Shown here in pieces: positions 10,291 through 55,509 of a stretch of 64,000 nt of DNA. The stretch's first letter is position 1. Each line of letters opens with the position of its first letter. A model generated the notes under the pieces. The model was not told where the DNA came from. It did no database searches and saw only the letters and a program-made list of their open reading frames with translations. Source of the DNA: Lachnospiraceae bacterium (GTDB lineage Bacteria; Pseudomonadota; Alphaproteobacteria; RF32; CAG-239); NCBI GenBank assembly GCA_963594125.1, contig CAVBCV010000002.1:42211-106210 (forward strand), written 5' to 3'. The position numbers and the translations under genes were made by a program.

Positions 10291-11280
10291 ATGGAACAAC
10301 AAGGCGAAATTATCATTTATCAGTCGGCTGACGGCAAAAACAAACTGGATGTAAAATTAGAAAATGAAACAGTTTGGCTTTCTCAATCTCAATTAGTTGA
10401 CTTATACCAAACCAGTAAATCCAACATCAGCGAACATATAAAAAATATTTTTAATGAAGGAGAACTATCTGCTGATTCAGTTGTTCGGAAATTCCGAACA
10501 ACTGCCGCTGACGGTAAAAAATATGAAGTATCATATTACAATCTTGATATGATTATTTCCTTAGGATACCGCATAAAGTCTTCTATTGCCACCCAATTCC
10601 GCATTTGGGCAACTGAACGCATAAAGGAATATATCATCAAAGGATTTACCATTGATGACGAACGTTTAAAGCAAAACGGCGGTGGAAATTATTGGAAAGA
10701 ATTGTTAGACCGCATCAGAGATATCCGCTCCTCTGAAAAAGTTTTATACCGTCAGGTTTTGGATTTATACGCTACAAGTTATGATTATAATGCCAAAGCA
10801 CCGGAAACTATTGAATTTTTTAAGGTTGTCCAAAATAAATTACATTTTGCCGCACACGGTCATACAGCATCAGAAGTTATATATGAACGCGCAAATGCCG
10901 ATAAGCCTTTTATGGGATTGACCACATTTTCCGGCAACCTACCGACTAAAGCCGAAGCCAAAATTGCTAAGAATTATTTAAGCGAAAAAGAATTAAAAGT
11001 ACTGAACAATCTCGTTTCCGGATATTTTGACTTTGCAGAAATCTATGCCGTCCGTCACGAACATTTATATATGAAAGATTACCTTAAACAGTTAGACAGC
11101 ATTTTATCTGCAACCGGCGAAAATATCTTACAAGGCGCAGGTAAAATCAGTCATAAAAAAGCAATGGAAAAAGTTGAGGCTGAATATAAAAAATATCAAG
11201 AAAAGACCTTAACTCCGATAGAACAAGCATATCTTGAAAACTTGAAAAGTTTGGAAAAAAAGATAGAAGACAAAAAATAA
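10291..11280 (+). CDS. RhuM family virulence/DNA-binding protein
   Basis: N-terminus IIIYQSADGKNKLDVKLENETVWLSQSQLVDLYQTSKSNISEHIKNIFNEGEL is the hallmark opening of RhuM-family proteins. 329 aa. Confidence 0.75.
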   Translation: MEQQGEIIIYQSADGKNKLDVKLENETVWLSQSQLVDLYQTSKSNISEHIKNIFNEGELSADSVVRKFRTTAADGKKYEVSYYNLDMIISLGYRIKSSIATQFRIWATERIKEYIIKGFTIDDERLKQNGGGNYWKELLDRIRDIRSSEKVLYRQVLDLYATSYDYNAKAPETIEFFKVVQNKLHFAAHGHTASEVIYERANADKPFMGLTTFSGNLPTKAEAKIAKNYLSEKELKVLNNLVSGYFDFAEIYAVRHEHLYMKDYLKQLDSILSATGENILQGAGKISHKKAMEKVEAEYKKYQEKTLTPIEQAYLENLKSLEKKIEDKK

Positions 11281-11320
11281 CAGTTATGATGTATTTGAAA
11301 AATTAATATTTTTTATTTGA

Positions 11321-11418
11321 CAATACAACTTATGCACAGCACGGACTCGTAAATATTGCAAAAAAAAAACGCGAGCTAAAATCTTCTCAAATTTAACTTT
11401 TTGAGAGGATTTTAGCTC
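11321..11418 (+). promoter_or_regulatory. conserved pilin-gene 5' module, copy 1 (promoter/5'UTR; RBS-sequestering hairpin)
   Basis: The sequence caatacaacttatgcacagcacggactcgtaaatattgc-A10-cgcgagctaaaatcttctcaa-atttaacttt-ttgagaggattttagctc-ATG. The arms gagctaaaatcttctcaa and ttgagaggattttagctc form an 18-bp stem with one G-U pair. The GAGAGGA Shine-Dalgarno sits in the 3' arm, and the stem ends 1 nt before the ATG. Near-identical copies lie at 21724-21820 and 58938-59034. Confidence 0.6.
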
Positions 11419-12054
11419 ATGTATACACAATCGGGAAGAAGTATGGTAGAGATGCTCGGCGTCTTAGCGATAATTGGCGTCTTATCTGTTGGGGCGATAA
11501 GCGGCTATGGGAAAGCGATGTTTAAGTATAGACTTAATAAACAAACTGAACAGCTAAATCAGGTTATCGGCACGATTGTACGCTATAAAAGCAGCTTAAT
11601 GCTTAACCCCGCTTCTGCCGACGCGCCGGTTTCTGATTATAATATAGTTTCGTTACTTAAAAAGCTCGGTGAAATTCCAAAGGAAATGTATATCAATGAT
11701 GATAGATTTATCAAAGATGCTTTCGGAACCGAATATCAAATTTATCATCGCAATACCGATAAAAGCATTACTTTACGAACTGTAGATTTAGGCAGAAACG
11801 AAACTGGTTTTCAAATTTGCAAAAATTTATATTTAATTGCCAAAGAATGGCACCAAGAATTATACGTCATAATTGTTGCAGCTTATAAAGGTGATACGTA
11901 TTCATCAAAAGGCTGTTATTTGGGCGATAACAGCACATATCAAGGCTGCTCCTCTAAAAGATATATTAAAGACTTAAAGCTGAGCGAGCTTGACGATATT
12001 TGCCGGACTGCCGCCGATGAGCAAGGGCATTATTCGGTATCAATAGATTTTTAG
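11419..12054 (+). CDS. type IV pilin-like protein (prepilin, short leader), paralog 1
   Basis: MYTQSG|RSMVEMLGVLAIIGVLSVGAISGY has the class III signal: Gly at -1, Glu at +5 and a hydrophobic alpha1 helix. Four Cys in the C-terminal part. 211 aa. Confidence 0.7.
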   Translation: MYTQSGRSMVEMLGVLAIIGVLSVGAISGYGKAMFKYRLNKQTEQLNQVIGTIVRYKSSLMLNPASADAPVSDYNIVSLLKKLGEIPKEMYINDDRFIKDAFGTEYQIYHRNTDKSITLRTVDLGRNETGFQICKNLYLIAKEWHQELYVIIVAAYKGDTYSSKGCYLGDNSTYQGCSSKRYIKDLKLSELDDICRTAADEQGHYSVSIDF

Positions 12055-21434: not shown

Positions 21435-21456
21435 CACAATACAACTTATGCACAGC
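21435..21456 (+). repeat. partial extra copy of the 5' end of the pilin 5' module
   Basis: caatacaacttatgcacagcac is identical to the first 22 nt of the module at 11321. Followed by degenerate similarity (cggattttgcaacaaaaacaaac). Confidence 0.4.
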
Positions 21457-21606
21457 ACTATTAATTCCCATCCCGAGGAGGGGTGGCGGCGATAGCCGAC
21501 GGGGTGGTGAAAATATAAGGATAGAAATTAGACAGGGATGTTGTTTATGTTTCGGATTTTGCAACAAAAACAAACATTTAATTTATTGTTGAATAGTGAT
21601 GTGACC

Positions 21607-21720
21607 ACCCCGCCTTCGGCATCCCTCCATAGAGGGGAATTTTTATAGTACCGCATCCATAGAGGGGAATTTTAAAATGGGTGGCACCCTGACTTGAAAT
21701 GGGAATTTTAAAGTGCGGAT
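21607..21720 (+). repeat. short direct repeats upstream of pilin paralog 2
   Basis: catcc(c)tccatagaggggaatttt occurs twice (21607-21642, 21650-21676). A third partial copy, gggaattttaaag, follows. Located immediately upstream of the conserved module copy 2. Confidence 0.4.
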
Positions 21721-21723
21721 TTA

Positions 21724-21820
21724 AATACAACTTATGCACAGCATGGACTCGTAAATATTGCAAAAAAAAAACGCGAGCTAAAATTCTCTCAAAACTAACT
21801 TTTTGAGAGGATTTTAGCTC
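21724..21820 (+). promoter_or_regulatory. conserved pilin-gene 5' module, copy 2
   Basis: aatacaacttatgcacagcatggactcgtaaatattgc-A10-cgcgagctaaaattctctcaaaactaactttttgagaggattttagctc-ATG. Hairpin arms gagctaaaattctctcaaa and tttgagaggattttagctc. Confidence 0.6.
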
Positions 21821-22588
21821 ATGTATACATATTTTAGCCGCCTTTTACACCGCACGCCGTCACACTCCGACTTGATCGGAGTGTCCAGGTGGGGGAAATT
21901 TGCTAATTTGGTTGACCTGGACCATCGGGTCAAGCCCGATGGTGACAACATTGTGAATGCTGGTAGGTCTATGGTGGAAATGCTTGGCGTGCTCGCGATT
22001 ATCGGAGTGCTGAGTGTTGGTGCAATAAGCGGTTATAGCAAAGCCATGTACAAATATAAACTTAACAAACAAGCTGAACAGCTTAATACTGTAATAAATG
22101 CTGTTGCCCGCAATGCGCACAGCTTTGATAATTTGTTAGCCAATAAAGGCGCCTTTTATATAACTGATACTTTTGTTAAAATGGGTGAAATTCCAACTGA
22201 AATGCAATACAGCGAACATTATATCCGTGATGTGTTTAATCTTTTTTGGACAATAAGTATACTAAACTATGACACCGGCACTTCATTAAATTTATCAGCT
22301 AACGAAGAAGGCACTTTAAAAAATAAATCAGCAAATAATTTGGACATTTGCCGCAATATTATTACTGTTGCTAAGGAAAATTCAGACAGTATCGCTTCAG
22401 TCTCAAACGTGATTTATAATCAAGACAGCGATAACTATACCGCAACCTCTTTATATGGCGATGCGTACTGCCTATCGGGCAGACCTTGTTTAAGAAACTT
22501 GAGCCTTGACGATATTTATAACTTTTGCACAAAATTTACCGGCGGCGACAAGCTGCCTCAGCTTAAAATAACATGGTGGATTAAGTAA
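21821..22588 (+). CDS. type IV pilin-like protein, paralog 2 (long N-terminal extension)
   Basis: The ORF from the conserved ATG reads MYTYF...(about 47 aa)...NAG|RSMVEMLGVLAIIGVLSVGAISGYSKAMYKYKLNKQAEQL. The mature part is homologous to paralog 1. Four Cys in the C-terminal part. An alternative internal GTG/ATG start closer to the G|R site is possible. Confidence 0.65.
   Translation: MYTYFSRLLHRTPSHSDLIGVSRWGKFANLVDLDHRVKPDGDNIVNAGRSMVEMLGVLAIIGVLSVGAISGYSKAMYKYKLNKQAEQLNTVINAVARNAHSFDNLLANKGAFYITDTFVKMGEIPTEMQYSEHYIRDVFNLFWTISILNYDTGTSLNLSANEEGTLKNKSANNLDICRNIITVAKENSDSIASVSNVIYNQDSDNYTATSLYGDAYCLSGRPCLRNLSLDDIYNFCTKFTGGDKLPQLKITWWIK
21831..21961 (+). mobile_element. RPE-like palindromic insertion, in-frame in the pilin 5' region (copy A)
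   Basis: About 130 nt absent from paralog 1. It forms three consecutive hairpins: cactccga-cttga-tcggagtg, ccaggtggggg...ttgacctgg and ccatcggg-tcaagc-ccgatgg. The reading frame is preserved. Confidence 0.45.
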
Positions 22589-23563: not shown

Positions 23564-26500
23564 CTAGAATAACTGTGCCGAAGTGTTAGTGCTGCCGGCG
23601 GTTGACGACGGCGGAGGAGTTGCCCCCACTGAAGTTACCGGCGGAATTGCCTGTCGCTGCTGCTGTCTGCGCTTTTGCTTATTAGCCTCGGCATTATCAT
23701 CAATCAACGGAGTGGTCGGCTGAACATTATCAGCTTCATTATCCATATAAACAACGCCTTGAGTACCGCCGGAGGTTCCGGTACCGGAGCTGCCGCCACC
23801 GCTGCTCTTGCTTGAAGAACCTTGGTCACGGTCATCAATAAGAACCGTCGGCTTATTCAGAGCGTCAAGAGCTTCTTCATCGCTGCGGGCCGCAGTGCGT
23901 ATCCACAAATCTTCCTTAGGATAAATAATCAAACGAGTGCCGGCCGGAACATAAGTAATCGCCTCAATATTGGTTTTATCCTGCAAAATTTGATTAAACA
24001 TATCGTCCATGTTTTGCAAAAAGTTTTCACGGGCATCTTGCGCAGCCTCAGCGCGAGCATTTGAAGTAGTGCTGCCGTCAGATGAGGTTGAGGTTTCGCC
24101 ACTGGCGGCAATATACGCAACCGCGCTGCTCATCAAGGTGGTTACCATCGGCAAAGTATACTTTTTAAGCAACTGCTCATCAAGATAACCGATAGCTCCG
24201 CCGCGACCTTGAGCATCACCGGTTTGCGCCGATGAAAATTCAAACGCTGAGCCGTCAGGACGAATAAGCCGGTTCCAGGTAATAGAAACACGAACCGCGC
24301 CGCCGCTGTTACCGCCGCTTGAACCGCCGGAAGATGTGCCCATAACACGGCTACCGGCCGGAATAACGATATTGCGCCCTTGCTCGGCGTATACGTTGCG
24401 TTCAACAATCGCCGTTACCGGAGCGCTGTCTGAACCGTTGCTTGACATAATGGTACGAGCCAAAACAGCCGGAATCGGCTTATCAGCCAAAATCATTTCG
24501 CTCATATCAACACGCCAACTTGAAATTTGACGCGGAATACCGTCCCAATACGGCTGCATACCGTCAAAACTCTTGGTATCGGCATTGGTTGAAACTTTGC
24601 CGACCGTGATTTCCTGCCGACGAGCCGCCTGAGCCGCCGCTAACGCCGCCGCCCGAACCGGATCATATCTTTCTCCGGGACCAAAGCCGCCACCCGGACC
24701 TAAATTTGACGGATTGTTTCCGGTGCCGTAAGCGCCGCCCGAACCGAACGTGCCGGCCGGAATAAACATTTGTCCGCCTTTGTTGTCTTTAACTTCTTCA
24801 ATACCGATTAAGCCGCCTTCATTATCCACAATCAAGCCATCCGGCATTTTTTTACCGATTAAATTGCCAAGCTTATCAACAACATCATTGTTGATCAAAA
24901 TATCGCCAAGATAATTGCCGTCAGGCGTTAAGGCAATGCCGATGGTTTTAAGCCCGTATTTGCCGGTATCGTCCGTGGTGGAACCTTGCGGAACATCAAC
25001 AGCGCCGATATTGATTTTGCCGCTATCCGGTTTGCCGGTGCCATCGCGGCGGGGAGTGTTTGCCCAATCCGCCGGTTTAGGCTCGCTCGGTTTTACCACA
25101 TTATAATACTGCAGTTCTTTTGCTAATGCCAAAACTTTGCCGCTATCATCACTGATTTCACCGCTGCCGCTGATTTTACCGATAACTTTACCGTCATGAT
25201 TGATAACTTCGCCGTTTAAGCGCAGTTCGCCGATAACATTATTAGCGTCATCGCGGATAAAGTAATCACGGTTGCCGCGACCGATTAAAGTATAATCTTT
25301 GCTGACTAAAAAGCCTCTGTCGGCTTTGCCGATACGATTACCGGCAAAATTAAGCACTATTCCGTCACGGGTTAAATAACCAAGCGTGTTGCCTTCGTCA
25401 TCATAAACATAAAAATCATACAAGGCATAACCAATGTTTTTATTATCATTAACCACCGTACCGTCAGCCAAAACTTTACCTAAAATGTCGTTTTTATCGC
25501 TGATGACCGTGCCGTCTGAAGTTACACGACCTAAAAAGCTGTTATCATGGTTAAAGGCAACTTTATAGCGGAAAGCCATACCTAAAACCTCACCGCCTGA
25601 TGATAACGCCGTGTCATCAGGCTGCATATAACCGAGCTCTTTGTTAGTAGAGCTGATAATTTTGCCGCTGGTATTACTGCGACCAAGTATATTGTTTTCA
25701 AAGTCAATTACCGGGAATACTTCTGCCACCCGACCGATAAATTTACCGTCATTGTTATAATAGCGCCCATTCCAAGTAACACAGCCTAAATCTTCATGAT
25801 TGTAGTTAAGCAAATGTCCGAGCGGATTAACCGTGCCTAAGCCTTTACCGGCAAAGTCAGCAACCATGCCTGATTTTACGCCGAAGCCTATCATATTGCC
25901 AACCTCAGATACTGCCTGCCCATTGGTTAAAATTTTGCCAAGCACAACGCCGCGGCTGTTGCGGATTTCACCGCGCGGACCGATAACACCCAAAAATGAG
26001 CATTTGTTGTTAACCACGCTGCTCATATTGCTGATTTTACCGATTAATGATTTGTTGGTATCAGCAACAATATCACCACCTAAAACCGAACCGATTTTGT
26101 TACCGGCAAAATCTCGCACAGCGCCGAAAATATCAGCATAGCCAAGCATATCGCCACTGATTGAGGTTGCTAAAAATGATTGTCCGGCGCCGCCGATAAC
26201 CGGCATTTGCTTGTTATCAGGCGTTCCGGTTGCCGAAATGACTTTATAACCGGGGACAATTTTGCCGCTGATATTACCCTTTTCATCAGTGATTAAATTG
26301 GTTTCAGTTAACGAACCCAAACTCTGCCCATCAGCTGAAACGACAAAATACGGATTAAGCGTGCCGACAACAACTTTATTGGCTGCGTCAAGGGCTAAAC
26401 CGGTTGCAGTTAATTTATAATTTCTTTCAGCCGGAATGCCCTGCAATTCGGCATTAACACCGATATATCCGCTAAGCTCGCCCGCCTCAGTATACAAGGC

Positions 26501-27811
26501 TGAGAGCGGAACGGAATTTCCGACCAATAAATTATCGGCAGAATATACATATCCGAACGGCGAAACCTTAAATTTGTTAATGCCGTCTTCAGAAAAATCA
26601 GCTCCGATACCGCTTAAACCCACTAAATTGGAACTATTATCAAAAATCAGCGCTGTTTCAGGAGCGGCGCCGATAATGCGCCCGATATTATCATAAGCAA
26701 TTTTGCCTTTGGCATAACCAAGCGGCGTTCCGGTTACGGAAATAACCGCGCCGCTGCGCAAGATTTGAGCTTGCAGTTCAGCCAAATAATCAAACACCGG
26801 TCCCGATTTAATCACCTGACCGATAATTTTACCGTCAGGGTCTTTTACAAAACCGCGGGCAGTGATAGTACCTACGCTTTGCTGAGCCTTGTAAACGCTT
26901 CCGTCCGGCATAACGCGTCCTAAATATTTGCCTTTTAAATCCGTTGCCGTGGCGGCAATATCAATTTTAAAGCCGATAACCTCATTTTGATTGTTAATAA
27001 TTTTATCATCGGCGCGTAATTTGCCAACAACTTTACCCAAGCTGATAACCTCGCCGTTATAGGCAACCAAGCCAAGATATTTGCCGAAATTATCAAAAGC
27101 ATAACCGTTGGAAACCGCTTTACCGATAACTTTATTATTTTCATCATAAGCAAAACCGTTAGCATGAATTTTGCCGATAACTTTAGCCTCAAAATCCGTT
27201 ACTTTTCCGCCGGGGGCAATACTGCCGATAAAATCGCCGGTTGGCGAAACAACCATTTTGGCGGAAATTAATTTACCGTCTAACACATACCCGTTGCCGC
27301 TGTTACGATAAGCATAACCCATGGCGGAGATAAAACCGATATTTTGTCCTTCCATGCTGATATATTGCCCGTCGCCGGTTAAACGACCAATCGCGTCGCC
27401 TTTATCATTATAAACCAATCCCGGATATAAAACCGCGCCCAAAATATTGTACGAATCGTCAACCACTAAAGCATTCGGCAGCACTTTACCTACAATTTTG
27501 CCGGACGGAAGACGCACTGAGCCGTCATTATTTACTCGTCCTAAAAGTTTATTATCATTGCCGATAGCAATACCCTGAGGAATAATGCCGCCTTTAATCT
27601 CGCCTTTGTTATTTACAATAAAACTATCAGCGGTAATGTTGCCGATAACTTCATTGTCAAAGCTGACCACCGTACCGTCAGGAATAACCTTACCGATTAA
27701 ATCGCCGTTAAAATTAATGGCCGTAATTTCTTGCGCAAAAGCCGAACCGGCCGTCATACAAATGACCGCCGTTAACATGATTTTGCATAATTTCAGTAAT
27801 TTTCCTGCCAT
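23564..27811 (-). CDS. virB10: giant repeat protein with VirB10/TrbI C-terminal domain
   Basis: Start at MAGKLLKLCKIMLTAVICMTAGSAFA (signal or anchor; RBS ggagga upstream). About 1100 aa of about 11-residue tandem repeats (GxxIGxVxxDGxVxx). A Gly/Ser-rich linker follows. The C-terminus contains PAVLARTIMSSNGSDSAPVTAIVERNVYAE...RVSITWNRLIRPDGSAFEF...AITYVPAGTRLIIYPKEDLWI, matching the VirB10 beta-barrel domain. Confidence 0.7.
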   Translation of the reverse strand: MAGKLLKLCKIMLTAVICMTAGSAFAQEITAINFNGDLIGKVIPDGTVVSFDNEVIGNITADSFIVNNKGEIKGGIIPQGIAIGNDNKLLGRVNNDGSVRLPSGKIVGKVLPNALVVDDSYNILGAVLYPGLVYNDKGDAIGRLTGDGQYISMEGQNIGFISAMGYAYRNSGNGYVLDGKLISAKMVVSPTGDFIGSIAPGGKVTDFEAKVIGKIHANGFAYDENNKVIGKAVSNGYAFDNFGKYLGLVAYNGEVISLGKVVGKLRADDKIINNQNEVIGFKIDIAATATDLKGKYLGRVMPDGSVYKAQQSVGTITARGFVKDPDGKIIGQVIKSGPVFDYLAELQAQILRSGAVISVTGTPLGYAKGKIAYDNIGRIIGAAPETALIFDNSSNLVGLSGIGADFSEDGINKFKVSPFGYVYSADNLLVGNSVPLSALYTEAGELSGYIGVNAELQGIPAERNYKLTATGLALDAANKVVVGTLNPYFVVSADGQSLGSLTETNLITDEKGNISGKIVPGYKVISATGTPDNKQMPVIGGAGQSFLATSISGDMLGYADIFGAVRDFAGNKIGSVLGGDIVADTNKSLIGKISNMSSVVNNKCSFLGVIGPRGEIRNSRGVVLGKILTNGQAVSEVGNMIGFGVKSGMVADFAGKGLGTVNPLGHLLNYNHEDLGCVTWNGRYYNNDGKFIGRVAEVFPVIDFENNILGRSNTSGKIISSTNKELGYMQPDDTALSSGGEVLGMAFRYKVAFNHDNSFLGRVTSDGTVISDKNDILGKVLADGTVVNDNKNIGYALYDFYVYDDEGNTLGYLTRDGIVLNFAGNRIGKADRGFLVSKDYTLIGRGNRDYFIRDDANNVIGELRLNGEVINHDGKVIGKISGSGEISDDSGKVLALAKELQYYNVVKPSEPKPADWANTPRRDGTGKPDSGKINIGAVDVPQGSTTDDTGKYGLKTIGIALTPDGNYLGDILINNDVVDKLGNLIGKKMPDGLIVDNEGGLIGIEEVKDNKGGQMFIPAGTFGSGGAYGTGNNPSNLGPGGGFGPGERYDPVRAAALAAAQAARRQEITVGKVSTNADTKSFDGMQPYWDGIPRQISSWRVDMSEMILADKPIPAVLARTIMSSNGSDSAPVTAIVERNVYAEQGRNIVIPAGSRVMGTSSGGSSGGNSGGAVRVSITWNRLIRPDGSAFEFSSAQTGDAQGRGGAIGYLDEQLLKKYTLPMVTTLMSSAVAYIAASGETSTSSDGSTTSNARAEAAQDARENFLQNMDDMFNQILQDKTNIEAITYVPAGTRLIIYPKEDLWIRTAARSDEEALDALNKPTVLIDDRDQGSSSKSSGGGSSGTGTSGGTQGVVYMDNEADNVQPTTPLIDDNAEANKQKRRQQQRQAIPPVTSVGATPPPSSTAGSTNTSAQLF

Positions 27812-27821
27812 AGTTAACACT

Positions 27822-30800
27822 TTAATTCCTCCGATTTTGAGCAACTTCCTGCAATGCGTAACCTGATACATTTTTATCTAAGTCAACAAACGAGCCGTTG
27901 CTTTTTAAGTATCCGATGTCTTTACCGTTACCTGATATAACTCTGCCGGTTGCCGCCAAGCGTCCCAAATATTTACCGTCATTTGAAACTATCGCCGTTC
28001 CGGTTTTATAGGACATACCTAAAATAGCATTTTGATTATCAACCGCCAAGCGCCCTGATAAAACCCGTCCGATAACAGAATTATCAAACCCGCGAACCGT
28101 GCCGTCAAAGCCGACATAAGCCACAACTTTATCCTGATTGTTAATTACAATATCGGCATCGGCAATTTCACCTATTAAACGACCTTCTTTATTTACCGCT
28201 TTACCATCGGAATAAACTTTGCCGATAACCACATTTTTGGTATTGATTACCGCGCCGTCAGGCAATACGGAACCGATAATTTTGCCGCCGTAATTAATTA
28301 CAACGCCGCGTTTAAGCACACTTAAATTTTTATCGCTTGCGCCGCCGGGGAGTATAAAAGTTGTCCGTTTAGAATTTAAATCGCGCACTCCGCCGGAAGC
28401 ATCAGTGTATCCGGTATAATTTCCGAATAAGTCAGTTACCACCGATTCAGGCACAACCTCGCCGATTACATTGCCGTTATCAGCGTTTAAGATTAATCCG
28501 TCACTGTTTTCAAGACCGGCTTTTTTACCTTTTTTATCAATAACCGTGCCATCAGCTTTAACATAACCTAAATACGAACCGTCATAACCGATTGCGGCGC
28601 CGGTGCGAACAATGCCGCCCGCGTATTGGTGCTTATCATCAAACCAGCGACCTTTGGCATCAGCCTGCCCCAAGTGTTCGCCGAAACGAGTTACAACTCT
28701 GCCATCCGCATTAATAAAACCTACATTTTTGCCGTTAAAATCAACCACTTTACCAAACGGAAGCAGTTTGCCGATGTTGCCGATATAAAAGCTCATGCCA
28801 TCACCGTAAATGCGGTCAATCACAGCGCCTTTATTATCATAAACATTGCCGTCAGCAAACAGACGACCGATAATATTACCGTCTGAATTTAACAAAATAT
28901 TTTTTTCAGGCAACGCCACCCCGATTATCTTATTGTTTTTATCAGCAATGTATTTGTGCAAAAACAACTTGGCGTCAGGGTGAGCTTTAATTTGCAAGGA
29001 GCCGTCAGATTCAAACGTACCTAACAATTTTCCATTTAAATCAAAGGCATAAAACGGCTGCGAGATTTTACCCAAATAAATTCCGTCTGAGGTGAATACT
29101 TCATCGTCAGTATTAACACATCCCACCGGCAATAATGCCGCAGAAACAACGTTGCCGGTCGGCACTAATCTTCCGACTACCCCGCCTTCAGCATTAAACG
29201 CCACTTTATACCGCGCAACTTTGCCGATAATATCGCCGTTATCATTTAACACACTGCCATCAGGATTTACGCAGCCGACATATTTTTTATCTTCATTTTT
29301 AACAATACCCTGCTCATCGGCGTCGCCAAGATAATTGCAGCTATTGTCAAACACGCGACCGGTTTTTACAACATCGCCCATATAAATATTTTTTTCATTA
29401 TAAACACTGCCGTCAGCATACACATGATAAGGCATATCCTGCCCATCTTTGGTAATAACGCCGGTTTTATTTAAAACTCCGACATTAGAGCAGCCCCAAC
29501 CGATTATAGTACCGCCGCGAACACCTTTCGCCACAAATTTGGAGCCGTTAGCCTCTTTAACCAAAGTGTTCGGCAACATACGACCCAACACCTGACCGCG
29601 GGTATTAATAACTTCTCCGGTCGGCGAAACATTGCCTAAAACCTTGCCTTCCGGTGTTATCGGAATTAAATCTGCGCGAACAATAGCGCCGATTTTGACT
29701 GCTTTGTTACTGATGACATTGCCGTCTTTATCCACCCTGCCAACTATACCGCCGTCAGCGCCCACTACGGAACCGTCTTTTTTTACATAACCCAATACTT
29801 TGCCGTCATCACTGACTGCCAAATTATTATACTCTCCTACTCTGCCGACAATATTACCGCGCTCATCAATAATAGTGCCGTCAGGCTGCATTTTACCGAT
29901 AACCCGCCCGTTAGCGTCTAAAATAGTGCCATCTTCAAGCTTTTTCCCGATTTTGTTACCGTTAAAATCATAAATTGTGCCGTCTTCATCAATATAGCCG
30001 ACCGCATTTCCATCCGCGTCATAATATATCTGCCGCGACGCGCCGAGTTTACCGATTTTTTCATTGCTTAACTTATAGGCATCGCCGTTTTCATCAACAT
30101 AACCAACCACATTGCCATCCGTATCAACAATAGAGTTATCAGGCATAACCACGCCTAAAACATTGCCGCTTTCATCAACCGCGGTACGTCCGGGTTTGCT
30201 GACATAGCCGATAACATTGCCGTTCATATCAACAACTTCGCCATTAGAATTTAACCTGCCGATAACGTTACCTTCTTTATCTACCACCGTGCCGTCTTCA
30301 AGCACTCTGCCGATAACATTACCGTTGGAATCGTAAACATATCCGGCTTCTACCGATTTACCGATTTTTACCCCATTACGATCAACCACTGTACCATCAG
30401 ATATTTCTTTACCGATAACATTGCCGTTAAAATCAAAAGCTTTACCATCAGCGCTGACTTTACCAATAACATTGCCGTTATCGTCATAAATCAGTTTTTT
30501 ATTACCGGCGACACCGATAATATTGCCGTTTTCATCAACGATGAGTCCGTCTTCATTAACCCTGCCGATAACATTACCGTCTTCATCACGAACATAACCT
30601 TCATCATCAATATAACCGATGATTTTACCATCCGGACCATAGGCTATGCGGTTTTTGCCATCATCAGCCATGGCTTTGCCGATAGTTTTACCGCTTTTAT
30701 CCAAAACATTGCCTTTAGCATCCAAAGTGCCAAGTTTGTTACCGTTTAAGTCAACTACTTGCCCGTTCGGCGTAACATATCCGATAATATTGCCGCTTGT

Positions 30801-31937
30801 ATCTCTGACAATTCGGCTGTTTCCGGGCGCTGTTTTGCCAATTAAGCTACCATCTTTATCAACAACATTGCCATAAGCGTCAGCCGTGCCGATTTCGTTA
30901 CCGTTTAAATCAACAGCCTGTCCGTCAGGAGTGATATAGCCGATAATATTGCCGTCCGCATCTTTGATAACCATGGTGTCACCGGTTGAAACTTTACCGA
31001 TTACATCGCCGCTTTTATCTAAGACATTGCCATTAGAATCAACCGTACCAAGGCGTTCGCCTTTTAAGTCAACCGCTTTACCGTTCGGGGTAATGTAACC
31101 AATGATTTTTCCGTTAGAATCGCGGATAACCAAATTTTCACCGGAAACGGCTTTACCGATAACATTACCATTTTTATCAATAACATTGCCATTAGCGTCA
31201 AGATAGCCGATTTCATTGCCGTTTAAGTCAAACGCGCGTCCGTCAGGGGTGACATAGCCAATAATATTACCGTCAGCATCTTGGATAAGCATGCGTTCAG
31301 CGCCATCTGAAGCGCCGCCGGAAGGAGTGGTGGTGCAAAAGTTGCAATCGGCCTGCGTAACTGCTTTACCGTCAACCGGAACTTTTTCAGCTTTGGCATT
31401 TTGCGCACCGACATTAGTTTCATGCCATGAGATAATAAAATTATTCTGCACATTGCCGCCGGTGGTCGGGAACCATTGCATGGTAACATTACAAGTTTGA
31501 TTGCCGCGTAATTCTTTGCCGCTGCAATCATCATCATAGCGGAATCCCTCAAACGGAGGTTCGGCAAGCTTTACTGAAACAATGCGAATAGGCGTTTTGC
31601 CGGTGGTGCCGATAGTCAGCACGTTTTTAGCATCTGTGCCCAACACAACCTGCCCCATATTAACCGGGTTCGGCGTGGTGGTAATCGGGAGTTCGGTTTC
31701 CTCCACTTCTTCAAACTCAAGATTATTGATGAGAGGATTGGTGTTTTCATTAAAATCTATTACATTGTCATCAGCGGTAAATACCGGCTCTTGTGATTCT
31801 TCGGGAGCCGCCCCGCTTGAAAACAACAGCAACAAACCAAATAAAAACACCACAAAAGAAGTAATACCAACAATCAAAATTATTCGGTTGGTTTTACGAA
31901 CATATCTTTCAGAGTGTGTTAAAACTTCTTTACTCAT
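27822..31937 (-). CDS. giant repeat protein with VirB10-like N-terminal topology (cytoplasmic tail, single TM, Pro/acidic linker)
   Basis: MSKEVLTHSERYVRKTNRIILIVGITSFVVFLFGLLLLF gives a cytoplasmic N-terminus plus one TM. An acidic/Pro linker and a Cys-containing globular segment follow. Then about 1100 aa of the same 11-aa repeat family (DxNGNxIGxVxPDGxxVD...) organised in about 44-aa super-repeats. It ends 10 nt upstream of the VirB10-domain gene. Confidence 0.6.
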   Translation of the reverse strand: MSKEVLTHSERYVRKTNRIILIVGITSFVVFLFGLLLLFSSGAAPEESQEPVFTADDNVIDFNENTNPLINNLEFEEVEETELPITTTPNPVNMGQVVLGTDAKNVLTIGTTGKTPIRIVSVKLAEPPFEGFRYDDDCSGKELRGNQTCNVTMQWFPTTGGNVQNNFIISWHETNVGAQNAKAEKVPVDGKAVTQADCNFCTTTPSGGASDGAERMLIQDADGNIIGYVTPDGRAFDLNGNEIGYLDANGNVIDKNGNVIGKAVSGENLVIRDSNGKIIGYITPNGKAVDLKGERLGTVDSNGNVLDKSGDVIGKVSTGDTMVIKDADGNIIGYITPDGQAVDLNGNEIGTADAYGNVVDKDGSLIGKTAPGNSRIVRDTSGNIIGYVTPNGQVVDLNGNKLGTLDAKGNVLDKSGKTIGKAMADDGKNRIAYGPDGKIIGYIDDEGYVRDEDGNVIGRVNEDGLIVDENGNIIGVAGNKKLIYDDNGNVIGKVSADGKAFDFNGNVIGKEISDGTVVDRNGVKIGKSVEAGYVYDSNGNVIGRVLEDGTVVDKEGNVIGRLNSNGEVVDMNGNVIGYVSKPGRTAVDESGNVLGVVMPDNSIVDTDGNVVGYVDENGDAYKLSNEKIGKLGASRQIYYDADGNAVGYIDEDGTIYDFNGNKIGKKLEDGTILDANGRVIGKMQPDGTIIDERGNIVGRVGEYNNLAVSDDGKVLGYVKKDGSVVGADGGIVGRVDKDGNVISNKAVKIGAIVRADLIPITPEGKVLGNVSPTGEVINTRGQVLGRMLPNTLVKEANGSKFVAKGVRGGTIIGWGCSNVGVLNKTGVITKDGQDMPYHVYADGSVYNEKNIYMGDVVKTGRVFDNSCNYLGDADEQGIVKNEDKKYVGCVNPDGSVLNDNGDIIGKVARYKVAFNAEGGVVGRLVPTGNVVSAALLPVGCVNTDDEVFTSDGIYLGKISQPFYAFDLNGKLLGTFESDGSLQIKAHPDAKLFLHKYIADKNNKIIGVALPEKNILLNSDGNIIGRLFADGNVYDNKGAVIDRIYGDGMSFYIGNIGKLLPFGKVVDFNGKNVGFINADGRVVTRFGEHLGQADAKGRWFDDKHQYAGGIVRTGAAIGYDGSYLGYVKADGTVIDKKGKKAGLENSDGLILNADNGNVIGEVVPESVVTDLFGNYTGYTDASGGVRDLNSKRTTFILPGGASDKNLSVLKRGVVINYGGKIIGSVLPDGAVINTKNVVIGKVYSDGKAVNKEGRLIGEIADADIVINNQDKVVAYVGFDGTVRGFDNSVIGRVLSGRLAVDNQNAILGMSYKTGTAIVSNDGKYLGRLAATGRVISGNGKDIGYLKSNGSFVDLDKNVSGYALQEVAQNRRN

Positions 31938-48389: not shown

Positions 48390-50177
48390 ATGCAGAAAAA
48401 AGCAGTTAAAAACTTTGTTTACAGCTTTTTATTCTCTTTACTGGCGGTTGCCGCCGTCGGTAAAGTGTTTTTCCGCGCGCCGGAAGCTCCGAAAAACCAA
48501 ACCGGAAATAAAGTTATTAAAACGCAGGATATATCGCTGTTTTCAAAGCCGAAAGACTTAACGGTTCGGCAGATTGCCGCCGCGCCCGCGGTTGACGTGA
48601 GCGCGATTGAGGCTTTAACCGCTCCCGCTCCGGCGGCGGAAATTGCCGCGCCGGAAGAGGCTTTAGAGCCAAAGCCGGAAGTTTTGGCGGAAAACATTAA
48701 TAATATTACAACAGATACTATTACCGCGGAAAGCAACATAATTACCAAGCCTGAACTTAGCACTGACCTTGCCGCCGCGCAGGAAATTGTGTTAGAGCCG
48801 GAAGAGATAGCTTCCGCGCAGGCTGCCGCGCCCGCTTATGAGCAAAGCGGTATTGTGTATGCCGACATCAGCGACACGCTGCAAGATGAAAAAATACAAA
48901 ATATTATGTTAAGCAAACCTTCTGAGCCGCTCAAAATTTTGTACGCGCCGGAAGATGAAGATATTAGCGCTGAAAATATTGTGGTGGCGGAAAATACGGC
49001 AACCGATAACGCCGCTTTAAGCGTTGCCCAGATTGAAGACGACGAAATTCCGCTGGTGGAAACATCCGGCACACTGCATAAGCAAATTGAAGTGCAAAAC
49101 TCCGCGTCAGGTTCTGAAATTGCGATGTTGGAGCCGAATATTTTGGTTAACACCATTGAGGAAGCGGACGCTCCGGAAGAAAAAACTTTAGCGGAAGCCG
49201 ACTTAAAGCAAAACGAATGGCAGCAGATGTCGGAAAAACAGCCGGAAGAAAGCCCGTGGGTGGTGGCTAAAGGCAATCGGTTTGCTAAAAACAAGGCGGT
49301 AGTGGAGCAATTTGCGCAAAGCGAACAAACTTTGGCGGAAACTCCGGCTCCGGCAGAAGAAGAGGTTGACGAATCTCAATCTGAGCCGGAAGAACAAACA
49401 AGCCTTTTGCGCCCCGCCGCGGAAGATGAAAACATCAGTTTGGCGCTTAAAGAAGAGGACAGTAACATTTCAGGCGGCGAAACCAAAGTGGCTTACCAGA
49501 TGGTGCCCAACCTTTTGATTCCGATACCGGACGATATTGCCAACGACCCGAATTTAACGCCGCAGCTCTCATATTCGCCCGATGACAAACCGGCTAAAAA
49601 AGACGAGGCTAAAGAAACCGCCGCGGCAACTCCGAACGATGAGGGCGGTTTAAATGAAGATGAAAAGAAAACCGGCTTATTTAAAAGTATAACCTCATGG
49701 TTTGCCGGTAACAAAGATAAAAGTAAAGATGAAAACCCGCAGACCGAAATCAGCCAATCGTCAGGGCAAAGCCGCAGCACTTTTGACTTTTTCGGCGTGG
49801 GAAGCAAGTTTCCGGGGCAGAGCAAACCGGCAAAAATTCTGCCGGCGGAGCTGAGACTTTCGTTTCAGCCCAACAGAGCGGAAATTTCAGGGCAGACTTT
49901 GCGCTGGATTCACGCTTTTGCCGATAACGCGCGCGACAATGACGATTTGTATATTGAAATCAGAATTGACGGCACCAGCTCATTTGCCCTGCAAAAGAAA
50001 AGGCTTAACCTGTTAAGCACTATTTTAGCAAACCGCGGAGTGGATTACAGAAAAATTAATATTGTGTTCACCTCGCGCGAGCCAAATTCATTTATTATTA
50101 GGAATATTCGGTTTAACAATAATGAAGAGGTTGTGATAAGCAAAGACAATGACAACTCTTATTACCGCCCATGGTAA
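48390..50177 (+). CDS. membrane-anchored acidic low-complexity protein with possible C-terminal OmpA/MotB-like domain
   Basis: N-terminal TM (FVYSFLFSLLAVAAVGKVFF). About 450 aa E/A/P-rich acidic region. The C-terminal approximately 110 aa (LRLSFQPNRAEISGQTLRWIHAFADNA...YIEIRIDGTSSFALQKKRLNLLSTILANRGVDYRKINI) loosely matches the OmpA-like peptidoglycan-binding pattern. Divergently transcribed from virB2. Confidence 0.45.
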   Translation: MQKKAVKNFVYSFLFSLLAVAAVGKVFFRAPEAPKNQTGNKVIKTQDISLFSKPKDLTVRQIAAAPAVDVSAIEALTAPAPAAEIAAPEEALEPKPEVLAENINNITTDTITAESNIITKPELSTDLAAAQEIVLEPEEIASAQAAAPAYEQSGIVYADISDTLQDEKIQNIMLSKPSEPLKILYAPEDEDISAENIVVAENTATDNAALSVAQIEDDEIPLVETSGTLHKQIEVQNSASGSEIAMLEPNILVNTIEEADAPEEKTLAEADLKQNEWQQMSEKQPEESPWVVAKGNRFAKNKAVVEQFAQSEQTLAETPAPAEEEVDESQSEPEEQTSLLRPAAEDENISLALKEEDSNISGGETKVAYQMVPNLLIPIPDDIANDPNLTPQLSYSPDDKPAKKDEAKETAAATPNDEGGLNEDEKKTGLFKSITSWFAGNKDKSKDENPQTEISQSSGQSRSTFDFFGVGSKFPGQSKPAKILPAELRLSFQPNRAEISGQTLRWIHAFADNARDNDDLYIEIRIDGTSSFALQKKRLNLLSTILANRGVDYRKINIVFTSREPNSFIIRNIRFNNNEEVVISKDNDNSYYRPW

Positions 50178-50264
50178 TAAGTTTTGCGCGGCGCTTGATT
50201 ATTTGAAATTCAACCTGTATGATGGAACAACAATGTAATGAAGTATGACATAGGGGAATTAAAT

Positions 50265-51020
50265 ATGAATAATAAATTACTCTTATCCGCCTGCCTGTTG
50301 TGTTTGGGTATGGCCGGCTGTGTGCGCTATAATTCAGCTTACACGGCTCAATGCAACGGTCCTGAGTGCCCGATGGACGTGTATATTGATGAAACATACG
50401 CCGCCATTCCGCCGGAGGGATATATCTGCCAAAATGCGGCAGACCCCAATATGTGTCCGAACGACCCGTATGTGAACTACACCCGCACCGCCGCCGATTT
50501 TAGAGAATACGGCGAAAGAACTCCCCGCGACAGATTAGTCTCGCAGGCCGGCGCAGGCAATAACCTCTCGGCGTCTATTCCCCCGTCAGTTGAAGATGAG
50601 GTTATTGAGTATGAAGAACAAGCAGGCGTTGCCGCTGAACCTGAAGTGCCAGAAGAAGAAAAAGTTGCTCCTGAGGACATAAAAGTTGATGAAACTATTG
50701 TTGCCGATACAGAAAATGATTCTGATGAAAATTCAGATGATGTGGAAGATCCGGTTCAGGATTGGCTTGCTGAAGAAGGTCAAAACCTTAAAGCTTTGCT
50801 TACTGAATGGAGCGAGCAGTCTGGCTGGCGCTTGGTTTGGAACACCAACCGCAATTATGTTTTGAACGCCGGAGCTATGTTTAGAGGACGCTTTGCCGAT
50901 GTCAGCTCGGCTTTAATCAGAGCTTTCGCCCGCGCCCGTCCGGCTCCGATTGCAACATTTTATAAAGGAAACCGCGTATTAGTCGTTGAAACGATGGAGG
51001 ATGAAAATGCGTATGAATAA
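50265..51020 (+). CDS. lipoprotein with TcpQ/PilL-like C-terminal domain
   Basis: MNNKLLLSACLLCLGMAGC lipobox. Acidic middle region. C-terminal LKALLTEWSEQSGWRLVWNTNRNYVLNAGAMFRGRFADVSSALIRAF resembles TcpQ/PilL-type pilotin-like domains that accompany type IVb secretins. Translationally coupled to the secretin gene. Confidence 0.5.
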   Translation: MNNKLLLSACLLCLGMAGCVRYNSAYTAQCNGPECPMDVYIDETYAAIPPEGYICQNAADPNMCPNDPYVNYTRTAADFREYGERTPRDRLVSQAGAGNNLSASIPPSVEDEVIEYEEQAGVAAEPEVPEEEKVAPEDIKVDETIVADTENDSDENSDDVEDPVQDWLAEEGQNLKALLTEWSEQSGWRLVWNTNRNYVLNAGAMFRGRFADVSSALIRAFARARPAPIATFYKGNRVLVVETMEDENAYE

Positions 51021-52626
51021 GTTTTTTAATTTAGCTCTTGGTACGGCAGTTGCCGCTTTGGTTGCGGCGTGCTCCGTTTCAACCGACCTGGACGCAACTT
51101 TGGACCGCGAAGTTGAAAACACCGTGGCTTTGAAAGAAAAAGCCAAGGCTCCGGTTACTCCGGCGGTTACTGATGTTATCAGAGTTAATGACGATATTTG
51201 GCTCGGCGACACCAGTGAAGTTGAGTATGAGGGCGATCCGGTTCCGAGTTATTTGGAAACTCCGGACGGCGTTACCTTAATCAGCAACCGCCCGATTACG
51301 TTATATGAAATCGGCGATATGCTGAACAAAATTACTTCACTTTCAGTCAGATACGATCCGACTTTGGAAGAAACTTCAAAGCAGCAGGCTGACGGCAACG
51401 CGCCTAACTTGGAATCTATCGGCGCGCAGTGGACCGACAGCACCAAAATGCTTGTTTCATACAAAGGTCCTTTGAGCGGCTTGCTTGATGAAGTTTGCAA
51501 CCGTTTCGGCATTTGGTGGAAATATGAAAAGAAACAAATTTATTTTTATAAATTTATCACCAAAACCTTTGTGTTATACACCTTGCCTACCAAACCGACC
51601 TTGTCGGTTAACGTCGGCGGCTCGTCTACCGACGGCAGCGCGGGTTCATCATCTGTTTCACTCAGCAACACCGCAAATATTGACTTGTGGGCTAATATTG
51701 AATCATCAATTAAATCAATGATTAGCAATGAGGCTCAGTTGACGATGGATCAGTCAAACGGCACCATCACTTTGACCGGCACTCCGACCGATATTCGCAA
51801 AGTGGCAAAATTTGTTAATGAACAAAACATCCGCCTTTCACGGCAAGTTGCCATCAGCGTTAAGGTTTTGCAGGTTAATGTTTCAGATTCAGACCAATAT
51901 GGTCTTAACCTTTCCGCCGCGTTTAAGGGCAACAACCACATCACTGATTTAGGTTTGGCAAGTCCGGGCGGTTTGGGCGCTGAGGTTACCAACAACCTGT
52001 CTATGACAATTTTATCCGGTCAGTGGACTTTGGCAGGCGCTATTCAAGCCCTTTCAGAGCAAGGCACCACCAACTTAATCACCAGTGGTACGGTTACAAC
52101 CTTGAACAACAAACCGGCTCCTATTCAGGTGGTTAAAACTCAGAACTATATTTCTGAAATTACTAAAACCAACTCCGGCAGCGACGGCAGCTATTATGAC
52201 CTTTCCACCACTACGGAGGAAATTGAAACCGGCTTTACGCTTGATGTTTTGCCGCGTATTTTGGAGCACGGCCGCTTGATGTTGATGTTTAACCTAACCT
52301 TGTCTGACCTTATTGAACTTGAAAGAGTTGATTTGGGCAGCGGCTCAAGCACCGAGGGCGAAACCAGCGGTCAATACATTCAAAACCCGATTATTGAAAC
52401 CCGCGGCTTTACGCAGGAAGTTGCCTTGAAATCAGGCGAAACCTTAATCTTGAGCGGTTATGAACGTGTTGAAAACACCGCTAAAAAAACCGGCGTAGGT
52501 TCGGCTGAAAACTCACTCTTGGGCGGCACCGCAACGGCTGAAAAAACTCGCAGTATCTTGGTTATTATGTTAACCCCTGTGGTTTTGGACTCCCCGCTTG
52601 TGCCCGAATCCAGAATGAAATACTAA
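51007..52626 (+). CDS. pilN: type IVb pilus secretin lipoprotein (PilN/TcpC-like)
   Basis: Lipobox ALVAAC. Secretin N-domain (ITLTGTPTDIRKVAKFVNEQNIRLSRQVAISVKVLQVNVSD) and C-terminal secretin domain (IIETRGFTQEVALKSGETLILSGYERVENT...RSILVIMLTPVVL). The exact start (51001/51007/51013) is uncertain. Confidence 0.8.
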   Translation: MRMNKFFNLALGTAVAALVAACSVSTDLDATLDREVENTVALKEKAKAPVTPAVTDVIRVNDDIWLGDTSEVEYEGDPVPSYLETPDGVTLISNRPITLYEIGDMLNKITSLSVRYDPTLEETSKQQADGNAPNLESIGAQWTDSTKMLVSYKGPLSGLLDEVCNRFGIWWKYEKKQIYFYKFITKTFVLYTLPTKPTLSVNVGGSSTDGSAGSSSVSLSNTANIDLWANIESSIKSMISNEAQLTMDQSNGTITLTGTPTDIRKVAKFVNEQNIRLSRQVAISVKVLQVNVSDSDQYGLNLSAAFKGNNHITDLGLASPGGLGAEVTNNLSMTILSGQWTLAGAIQALSEQGTTNLITSGTVTTLNNKPAPIQVVKTQNYISEITKTNSGSDGSYYDLSTTTEEIETGFTLDVLPRILEHGRLMLMFNLTLSDLIELERVDLGSGSSTEGETSGQYIQNPIIETRGFTQEVALKSGETLILSGYERVENTAKKTGVGSAENSLLGGTATAEKTRSILVIMLTPVVLDSPLVPESRMKY

Positions 52627-52644
52627 CAGTAAAGGAATAATACC

Positions 52645-53937
52645 GTGTTAGAGGATGCTAATTTAGATGAAAACTATTCCGGCGAAGTTAATTCGGCGGA
52701 ACGAGACGAAACCAAGGCTTGGGGTACCAGCTTTGATATAGGCGGCGTGACTTATGCCGCAAGCTTGTTCTGGCAGCCTCTGCAAAATCGGGACGACCCG
52801 TTTGTTGAAATTATTGAGGCTTCCGAAAACGTTTTGGAAGGCGCCGACCTCTTCTGCTTAAAACCCGGTAAATCGCCGCAATTCGGTTTGTGCGTTTCAT
52901 ATCAGGGCTATAAAAAGAAAATGTCGGCGGCGGCGGTCTCGGTTTCAACCGCGCTTTCTGACCGCTCGTCATTTTTGGCAGTGTTTAAGGTTAGCAATGG
53001 ATGGTGGTATGTCTGCGCTCGTAACGATATAATCCTGTCCGATGGCGATATGCTCTTTTTAAATGAAGAGGACGCCAAAGAACAGTTTATGTCAATGCTC
53101 GCGGTTCCGGATTGGGGTCGCAAAATCGCGCCGGAAGAGTGGGGCTTGGACGATATTGAAAATATATCGCTTGAAAGCCTGCTTGAAAAAGGCGCCGACG
53201 CAAAACTGCAAAAAATCAGAGCATTGCGCGGACCAAAACTGTTTGCCGTGGTGGCAGCAGTCGGCGTTGCCGCAATTTGGCTCGTTTCAACCTTAATCAA
53301 CTCGGTATTTTTGGCGCCGCCGAAAAAGCCGATTGTTACTCCGGTGCCCATCAGGCAAATTGAAAAAGCGCCTCCTCCGCCGGAGCCTAAGCCATGGGAA
53401 AACCTGCAAGACCCGCAAGCCGTTTTAATCGGTTGCTTAAAAGCTACGCAAGACGTGGTCGGCATTGTTACTCCGGGATGGAAAATTGAGGGTATTACCT
53501 GCACTCCGACCGGCTTGGTTACCTCATGGAAACGCGAAATCGGGCGTATTTCATGGATTGATAAAGCGCTTAATAAATCAGGCGTTACGTTTTCAAGCCG
53601 CTCTATTGCCGCTAACGGTAACAGCGTGATTGTTTCAGTGCCGATTACGGGCGTTAACACCTTTAATTCGCCACCGGAAATGAACGGTGTTGATTTGGTT
53701 AACACCTTAAACGATTTGTTCCAAGGATTGCAAATGCCTATCAGTATGAATACTGAGACTTGGACATCTCCGCAGAAAAATGTTTATCGTTCGGTAAAAT
53801 TCAGCTTTACTTCCAACCATGATCCTAAACAATGGTTAGGTTTGTTAATGAAATTTTCAGGACTTAAGATTAATACTATTAAATATGATATAAACAGCCA
53901 TAACTGGTATTACGAAGGAGCAATATATGTATTATAA
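52645..53937 (+). CDS. bitopic assembly protein, PilO2/GspL-like
   Basis: GTG start. About 190-aa cytoplasmic N-domain, single TM (LFAVVAAVGVAAIWLVSTLI), Pro-rich linker and about 200-aa periplasmic domain. The size and position match PilO of R64/PAPI-1-type clusters. Confidence 0.45.
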   Translation: MLEDANLDENYSGEVNSAERDETKAWGTSFDIGGVTYAASLFWQPLQNRDDPFVEIIEASENVLEGADLFCLKPGKSPQFGLCVSYQGYKKKMSAAAVSVSTALSDRSSFLAVFKVSNGWWYVCARNDIILSDGDMLFLNEEDAKEQFMSMLAVPDWGRKIAPEEWGLDDIENISLESLLEKGADAKLQKIRALRGPKLFAVVAAVGVAAIWLVSTLINSVFLAPPKKPIVTPVPIRQIEKAPPPPEPKPWENLQDPQAVLIGCLKATQDVVGIVTPGWKIEGITCTPTGLVTSWKREIGRISWIDKALNKSGVTFSSRSIAANGNSVIVSVPITGVNTFNSPPEMNGVDLVNTLNDLFQGLQMPISMNTETWTSPQKNVYRSVKFSFTSNHDPKQWLGLLMKFSGLKINTIKYDINSHNWYYEGAIYVL

Positions 53938-55495: not shown

Positions 55496-55509
55496 TAAGG
55501 GTACGCTCA

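Follow-up and report, generated by a model that had tools for sequence, protein, structure and literature searches.

Three pilin-like genes that lie in unrelated parts of the window (the whole stretch of 64,000 nucleotides analysed here) are each preceded by almost the same 100 or so base pairs of non-coding DNA, which run up to the start codon and contain an inverted repeat capable of burying the Shine-Dalgarno sequence (SD). What kind of element is this, and how could it govern the genes that it precedes? A preliminary description proposed that translation of all three genes is gated by melting of the hairpin or, alternatively, that the palindrome is a DNA operator. In this report, we find that the block is real, strongly conserved and previously undescribed; the last of these adjectives is used because no Rfam family was found at gathering score in the window and a search of the literature on the module and on the pilin family returned no papers. 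With an E-value threshold, positions 11300-11450 gave only sub-threshold matches to generic hairpins in Rfam. Judged by sequence comparison, the module is a promoter-plus-leader cassette that stands ahead of dozens of pilin genes in uncultured gut Alphaproteobacteria. It joins principles that are known singly: the promoter cassette of a multigene family of surface proteins, the homopolymer spacer and the anti-SD fold-back.

Sequence reading and alignment place the three modules on the forward strand, each ending at the ATG of an ORF (Table 1). Their pairwise identity is 92-95%, which bears out the near-identity first described, and a 39-nt core, GACTCGTAAATATTGC-A10-CGCGAGCTAAAAT, has the same letters in all three copies; the rest of the window lacks it, and shuffled sequences are expected to give no match. 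At the third codon positions of the conserved N-terminal coding region, identity among the paralogs is only 26-49%. Thus, the non-coding block is held far more tightly than the synonymous sites of the genes that follow it. The partial fourth copy that had been noticed is also present: the 19-mer at the 5' end of the module recurs at 21439-21457, and by eye the match extends over 22 nt (21435-21456). The surroundings of the three genes (an islet, the T4SS and a thin-pilus cluster) had been named correctly, and we located the T4SS at 22581-47157 on the reverse strand and a type IVb pilus cluster at 48390-58899 on the forward strand. The window is chromosomal, carrying topA, dprA, gpsA and mlaA. 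A search of a plasmid collection returned no similar DNA.

Table 1. Positions in the window of the module copies, their parts and the genes that follow them.
Feature	Position	Strand	Remarks
Module copy 1, promoter-like half and leader, ending at the ATG of pilin-like gene 1	11323..11418	+	Sequence, alignment
Box 1, TTATGCACA, copy 1	11330..11338	+	Kept in clade A; other clades have a TTATCCACA-like form
Box 2, GACTCGTAAATA, GANTC motif then A/T-rich stretch directly 5' of TTGC	11344..11355	+	
TTGCAA, -35-like element, copy 1	11356..11361	+	
A10 tract, most of the 15-bp spacer, copy 1	11360..11369	+	
TAAAAT, -10-like hexamer inside the 5' arm, copy 1	11377..11382	+	Predicted transcription start near 11389
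Hairpin 5' arm, GAGCTAAAATCTTCTCAAA, copy 1	11373..11391	+	Anti-SD is CTTCTC
Hairpin 3' arm, copy 1	11400..11418	+	SD GAGAGGA at 11403-11409
Pilin-like gene 1	11419..12054	+	Leader MYTQSG; cleavage-type motif G/RSMVEMLGVLAIIGVL
Partial module copy, 5' end, Box 1 only	21435..21457	+	About 265 bp of GC-rich repeat DNA before copy 2
Module copy 2	21725..21820	+	TTGC 21758-21761, A10 21762-21771, TAAAAT 21779-21784, arms 21775-21794 and 21801-21820
Pilin-like gene 2	21821..22588	+	47-residue leader
Module copy 3	58939..59034	+	TTGC 58972-58975, A10 58976-58985, TAAAAT 58993-58998
Hairpin arms, copy 3	58989-59008 and 59015-59034	+	One C.A mismatch
Pilin-like gene 3	59035..59832	+	66-residue leader

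The proteins encoded by these genes are type IV pilin-like by the features of a class III signal peptide. The motif G/RSMVEMLGVLAIIGVLSVGAI is present in all three, and an alignment of 16 diverse members shows G6 (position -1), E11 (position +5), the LGVLAIIGVL helix, C134 and C195 to be invariant. A Pfam search of the pilin ORFs matched no family, curated pilin models gave only sub-threshold matches at the N-terminus (GspH, prepilin-dependent protein and TcpA), and exact-protein look-ups of pilin 1 and of two relatives (P0001 and P0020) returned no match. The family is nevertheless very large, with more than 7,700 database matches; all of its genome matches are MAGs of uncultured gut Alphaproteobacteria from human or other animal gut samples, in which many paralogs are found per genome, at dozens of loci.

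To what extent does the module accompany these genes? A survey of the regions upstream of 80 genome loci and in 86 metagenome stretches recovered more than 100 distinct modules from gut Alphaproteobacteria MAGs and metagenomes, with dozens per genome; the earlier suggestion that the module travels with the gene thus holds well beyond the window. The unit kept across all clades is TTGC-A(8-13)-CG-N3-TAnnAT. When the hexamer was left unconstrained, its profile over 101 distinct modules was T99 A100 n n A100 T100, and the information content falls on either flank. This is the profile of a -10 element, in agreement with the sigma-70 pattern TAnnnT, in which positions 1, 2 and 6 are invariant. On its 5' side, TTGC conforms to the -35 pattern TTGnnn, with a single TTGT variant seen by eye (locus L052); TTGC followed by A was the anchor used to search for the modules, and its constancy is therefore partly built in.

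The distance between these two elements is the unusual part of the arrangement. In 42 of 65 modules, 15 bp separate TTGCAA from the hexamer; this modal value lies outside the 16-18 bp of sigma-70 promoters. Clade A, the lineage of the window, reaches its total with A10 and CGCGAGC (7 nt), and the other clades reach the same total with A12 and CGGTT (5 nt); these equal sums by two routes indicate that the spacing is constrained. Among other pairs of -35-like and -10-like elements in about 832 kb from the same MAGs, spacers peak at 17 bp (36 pairs, against a background of about 16). The module thus falls 2 bp short of this preference, which suggests that its promoter would be weak unless assisted by an activator or by a change in the length of the A tract. 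A simple consensus promoter scan left the module unflagged, because that scan demands spacers of 16-18 bp. Candidate sites for such assistance lie upstream: Box 1, which reads TTATACACA in copy 3, bears what we take to be a resemblance to the DnaA box (consensus TTATNCACA), and Box 2 starts with GACTC, an instance of GANTC, presumably the CcrM methylation site of Alphaproteobacteria.

Other readings of the promoter-like half were tried and set aside. TTGCA resembles a sigma-54 -12 box, but a GG would be wanted 12 nt upstream, and the nearest one lies at 15 nt and is missing from the other clades. The motifs of sigma-28, sigma-32 and the CtrA box fit poorly by eye, and an ECF-like AAC-N18-CGT pattern in clade A is not conserved in the other clades. 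An antisense promoter on the reverse strand of the palindrome was also considered, and a reading of the sequence showed no suitably spaced -35 element for it.

In sum, the upstream two-thirds of the module read as a promoter of the sigma-70 type, unusual in its spacer, a 15-bp stretch made up mostly of the A tract. This reading gains from genes that do not encode pilins. A glycosyltransferase gene, genes for Cys-rich secreted proteins and genes for signal-peptide proteins are preceded by the module up to the last T of the hexamer, after which their sequences diverge (sites at L062, +943; L131, -1533; L158, -178; L016, -1524; L029, -3863; and L077, -4205 and -5025); the glycosyltransferase is family-2-like, and the small signal-peptide proteins start MRKYFLL...ANA. 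Such sharing suggests a regulon of surface proteins with one common promoter type. The hexamer also evolves as a promoter element would: in variants such as L166, with TATAAT, and a TAATAT subclade, it comes nearer to the -10 consensus and the hairpin pairing is lost. Taken with the -10-profile hexamer and with TTGCAA 15 bp upstream of it, the sharing up to the hexamer leads us to predict that the module has its own transcription start site (TSS) about 7 nt past TAAAAT, inside the 5' arm of the hairpin. Because the -10 box itself lies within that arm, the pilin's own mRNA probably lacks the 5' arm.

This prediction changes the meaning of the hairpin, which is stronger than had been described when the leader is folded in silico. 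The stem has 19 bp in copy 1, 20 bp in copy 2 and 19 pairs around one C.A mismatch in copy 3, rather than the 18 bp first given, and minimum free energies are -30.0, -29.8 and -24.6 kcal/mol, respectively (z -7.4 to -9.9 against shuffles). Nor does the stem stop one nucleotide before the AUG: the last base of the main stem directly precedes the AUG, and a 3-bp extension pairs its U and G. The SD lies in the 3' arm of the minimum-energy structure in all three copies, as GAGAGGA in the first two, as claimed, and as GAGAGAA in the third; this bears on the mRNA only if the 5' arm is transcribed. The stem is not an intrinsic terminator, as no U tract follows it and a scan of 11200-11500 around copy 1 found no terminator-like site.

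An RNA thermometer, one of the means of melting that had been envisaged, finds no favour in these predictions. The probability that the SD is unpaired is 0.001 from 25 to 50 C in copies 1 and 2 (37 C included), and even at 80 C none of the three stems has opened. The module does share with FourU and ROSE elements a U-rich or pyrimidine anti-SD (CUUCUC, CUUUUC) that pairs with GGAG-type SDs through G.U pairs. It differs from them in a stem of 14-22 bp with -13 to -30 kcal/mol, in having no predicted opening below 80 C and in matching no Rfam family at gathering score.

Is the palindrome then a feature of the DNA or of the RNA? The relatives bear on this point. The long hairpin is a trait of clade A. 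Almost all of 75 distinct sequences retain pairing in its upper stem of 14-15 bp, which is formed by AAAAUCUUCUCAAA and UUUGAGGAGAUUUU and sets the CUUCUC anti-SD across from the SD, so that this part of the hairpin first described stands; the lower GAGCU/AGCUC stem is found in a minority of them (about 35-40%) and shows no covariation, changes of GAGC to GGAG going uncompensated. One compensatory pair was found, pair 23-32, which alternates between A-U (35) and U-A (19). In 82 of 83 copies the more stable fold is that of the sense strand (means of -16.7 kcal/mol for the sense and -10.9 kcal/mol for the antisense strand), about 230 G.U pairs stand against very few C.A mismatches, and the distance between the arms, or loop length, varies among relatives. 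This bias toward the sense strand, the tolerance of G.U, the switch between U-A and A-U and the variable arm distance argue that the hairpin is under an RNA-type constraint on the single-stranded sense strand, and against an operator or a cruciform.

It is true that the palindrome overlaps both the -10-like box and the ribosome-binding site (RBS), and that its arms are perfect in copies 1 and 2, as might be wanted of an operator for a dimeric repressor or of a cruciform that occludes the -10 box. We nonetheless regard a DNA-level element as very improbable. The arm-to-arm distance shifts by several nucleotides among relatives; the imperfections are nearly always T opposite G on the forward strand, hence A.C on the reverse strand, whose hairpin is on average about 6 kcal/mol weaker; and arms of 19 bp are far longer than the half-sites of proteins.

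If the pairing matters in RNA, the question becomes which RNA carries it. In silico, folding energies are -25 to -30 kcal/mol for the full leader, which would render the mRNA essentially untranslatable, whereas the short leader that would begin at the predicted internal TSS is open (-2.7 to -5.9 kcal/mol, likewise in silico). We favor, with a confidence just short of even, a mechanism in which a promoter limited by an activator or by its spacer is combined with an anti-SD that folds back on the SD and silences transcripts only when they come in from upstream. Under such a mechanism, the upstream boxes would presumably serve as contacts for an activator or as UP-like contacts, TTGCAA would serve as the -35 element and TAAAAT as the -10 element, and the mostly A-tract spacer of 15 bp between them would be rigid. 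The promoter's own transcription would start about 7 nt past TAAAAT and yield a leader of some 30 nt with its SD free. The 5' arm, which holds the -10 box, the CTTCTC anti-SD and AAA, would lie upstream of or across this start. With the arm at or before the predicted TSS, the complete hairpin would form only in read-through transcripts, in which it would lock the SD and the AUG. Each pilin copy would thus be translated only upon the firing of its own promoter. Read-through is plausible: when ORFs are called crudely, with a minimum of 120 codons, 36 of 51 loci, all three window copies included, have a co-oriented ORF as their nearest upstream neighbour, and the scanned interval around copy 1 is free of terminator-like sites.

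This logic is that of the fold-back inhibition of IS10/Tn10, which Davis, Simons and Kleckner are said to have described in 1985 and which reportedly protects the element against external promoters. If the predicted TSS is right, the two are alike in that a sequence complementary to the RBS region lies upstream of the element's own TSS, the promoter sits in or next to the 5' arm, and the hairpin that sequesters the RBS would form only in transcripts from outside. The differences are that the gene of the module encodes a pilin, not a transposase, that each genome carries dozens of copies of the cassette, that the TSS of the module is a predicted one, and that an equivalent of the antisense RNA-OUT was not found.

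A role in insulating the genes from read-through hangs, as we infer it, on the predicted TSS, and several observations sit uneasily with it. At least 90% of copies keep UAAC in the loop, a conservation for which a pure insulator would have no need. Hairpin strength does not correlate with the orientation of the upstream gene (mean -15.2 kcal/mol after co-oriented and -16.1 kcal/mol after divergent genes), and several of the strongest hairpins sit after divergent genes. In clade C and in L036, the stems that sequester the RBS have 5' arms largely downstream of the hexamer. The atypical 15-bp spacer is a further such point, and the ECF-like pattern of clade A could be a second promoter whose transcript would contain both arms.

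These same observations, apart from the spacer, lend weight to a gate in the native leader, much as first proposed, in which transcription would begin upstream of the 5' arm (for instance in or near the A tract, from a promoter that the upstream boxes would form) and every pilin mRNA would carry the hairpin, to be opened by RNase III acting on the duplex of about 20 bp, by a helicase, or by an RNA or protein that captures the 5' arm or the UAAC loop in trans. The G.U signature of the sense strand and the compensatory pair are also in its favor. Candidate promoter elements for it exist: a -10-like TAAAAT or AAATAT adjoins TTGC, and the ECF-like pattern of clade A can be written as AACTT-N16-CGTAA. 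There is also a precedent, in that the 5' untranslated region of IS200 tnpA has a stem-loop that constitutively sequesters the SD and represses 30S binding (PMC4513863). The module resembles that leader in having a stable stem-loop over the SD; the IS200 stem lies wholly within the mapped mRNA, whereas the 5' arm of the module holds a -10-like box.

Other evidence makes the gate in the native leader doubtful, in our estimation, though it is the chief rival. The -10-like hexamer upstream fails in about 8 of 27 modules from outside clade A and has no -35 partner, whereas the downstream hexamer keeps its invariant, -10-like form throughout the 101 modules. The heterologous genes keep the TAnnAT block in the absence of a pairing partner. 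The incomplete and non-covarying lower stem likewise speaks against it, and a leader so stable, with its SD so rarely unpaired, would shut off a structural protein that is ordinarily abundant. The start site that the preliminary description had named as incompatible with such gating, one inside or downstream of the 5' arm, is the one predicted here.

The pairing of the -10 region with the RBS was also considered as a rule for the whole family and does not hold as such: it is present in clade A, takes a different form in clade C, and is absent in clades B and D (z of about 0 to +1). The clade C form (L007, L028, L049 and L078) is a long-range stem of UUUCGUUUAAAGCC with GGUUUUAAAUGAAA that begins directly 3' of the -10-like hexamer. 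It takes in the AUG, the first codon and a portion of the SD, and its folding energies are about -12 kcal/mol for the sense strand and about -3 kcal/mol for the antisense strand. Sequestration of the RBS in the native mRNA may therefore be a theme of the family.

Returning to the promoter with its fold-back anti-SD, we note that its spacer is mostly a homopolymer, which raises the possibility of phase variation. The tract had been given as A10-11; it is exactly A10 in all three window copies. Elsewhere it ranges from A7 to A13 between TTGC and the CG-N3-TAnnAT block, and in clade A the lengths are A10 (n=69), A9 (n=16), A11 (n=3) and A7, A8 and A12 (once each). Slippage could shift each paralog independently from a spacer of 15 bp (weak or off) to one of 16-17 bp (on), and such switching would be compatible with either account of the hairpin. 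In favor of this, the boxes that resemble -35 and -10 elements have the homopolymer exactly between them, other promoter-like pairs prefer a spacer 2 bp longer than the modal one of the module, a single A separates the alleles in two of three nearly identical pairs, and in the MAG HGM16767 one of 13 copies has A12 and hence a 17-bp spacer. Conserved promoters in which a homopolymer sets the spacing are known from genes of variable surface structures, namely Neisseria porA and opc, Mycoplasma vlp and Bordetella fim. The module shares with them the surface-structure paralogs, the conserved promoter and a homopolymer that sets the geometry of its elements; its tract length, in contrast, is strongly modal, and switching is here a possibility raised by sequence.

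We consider phase variation improbable on balance. The tract is exactly A10 in 76% of clade A copies, and both groups of clades keep one total spacing, as expected of stabilising selection on length. Identical alleles from separate samples have the same tract length (L001-L003; L004-L006). Among near-identical pairs, 11 of 13 agree in length, and the two that differ carry 5-6 mismatches in their flanks. The lengths come from assemblies, and differences among them may be homopolymer assembly errors. The tract thus appears to be mainly a spacer of fixed length, phase variation being possible. The idea that the cassette as a whole is a switch for antigenic or adhesive variation, one for each of dozens of pilin paralogs, strikes us as unlikely to be correct. 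In it, the A tract would hold every promoter 2 bp below optimal spacing, slippage or a limiting activator bound to the upstream boxes would fire one or a few copies, and the fold-back anti-SD would silence the others even where they are transcribed through. Were it true, expression would be strictly one promoter, one pilin.

Whichever account proves right, the upstream boxes, the A-tract spacer and the anti-SD that overlaps the -10 box make up a compact and testable regulatory unit. It bears on whether pilins are expressed one at a time, on phase variability and on whether ordinary genes for surface proteins can be insulated by a fold-back like that of insertion sequences. There are practical consequences as well, in that metagenome assemblies break at pilin genes because of the repeat, whose consensus can be used to find and count members of the family. 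In assembly ERZ1034928, 49 matches are spread over 46 contigs, many at contig ends, and many pilin genes and modules in the wider set lie 10-250 nt from contig ends (loci L088-L167 and L010-L083). This placement indicates that the repeated module and the leader repeats interrupt short-read assemblies, and the numbers of pilin copies in these MAGs are likely underestimated.

The leader repeats just mentioned are GC-rich palindromic units that occupy the prepilin leaders of copies 2 and 3 (21830-21961 and 59044-59229). One of them, gacctggaccatcgggtcaagcccgatggtgac, is translated as DLDHRVKPDGD, and related loci are L011, L098, L125 and L127. Among 38 distinct long leaders (25-91 codons), the ATG of the module is in frame with the pilin, with no stop between, in 37, and the two remaining frames are open in none of 76 cases. 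Judging from this bias, the insertions are translated, giving leaders that are unusually long for class III signal peptides.

A second kind of repeat DNA separates the partial from the full copy of the module's 5' end before pilin-like gene 2. This GC-rich, repeat-laden segment of about 265 bp (21458-21723) has imperfect inverted ends, AATTCCCATCCCGAGGAGGGGTGG and CCACCCCGCC...GAGGGGAATT, and similar ends (...GGGGTGGT or ...GTGCGGATTTAA) adjoin many modules of other MAGs at their ATACAAC boundary. This recurrence suggests a MITE-like element that targets the upstream edge of the module.

Finally, the T4SS cluster of the window contains two giant ORFs on the reverse strand, of 1435 aa (23564-27871) and 1371 aa (27822-31937), both packed with beta-flower repeats (PF21785/PF21784). 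The former is fused to a TrbI/VirB10 domain and the latter carries DUF3659 repeats; by these domain assignments, the VirB10 architecture is an unusual one.
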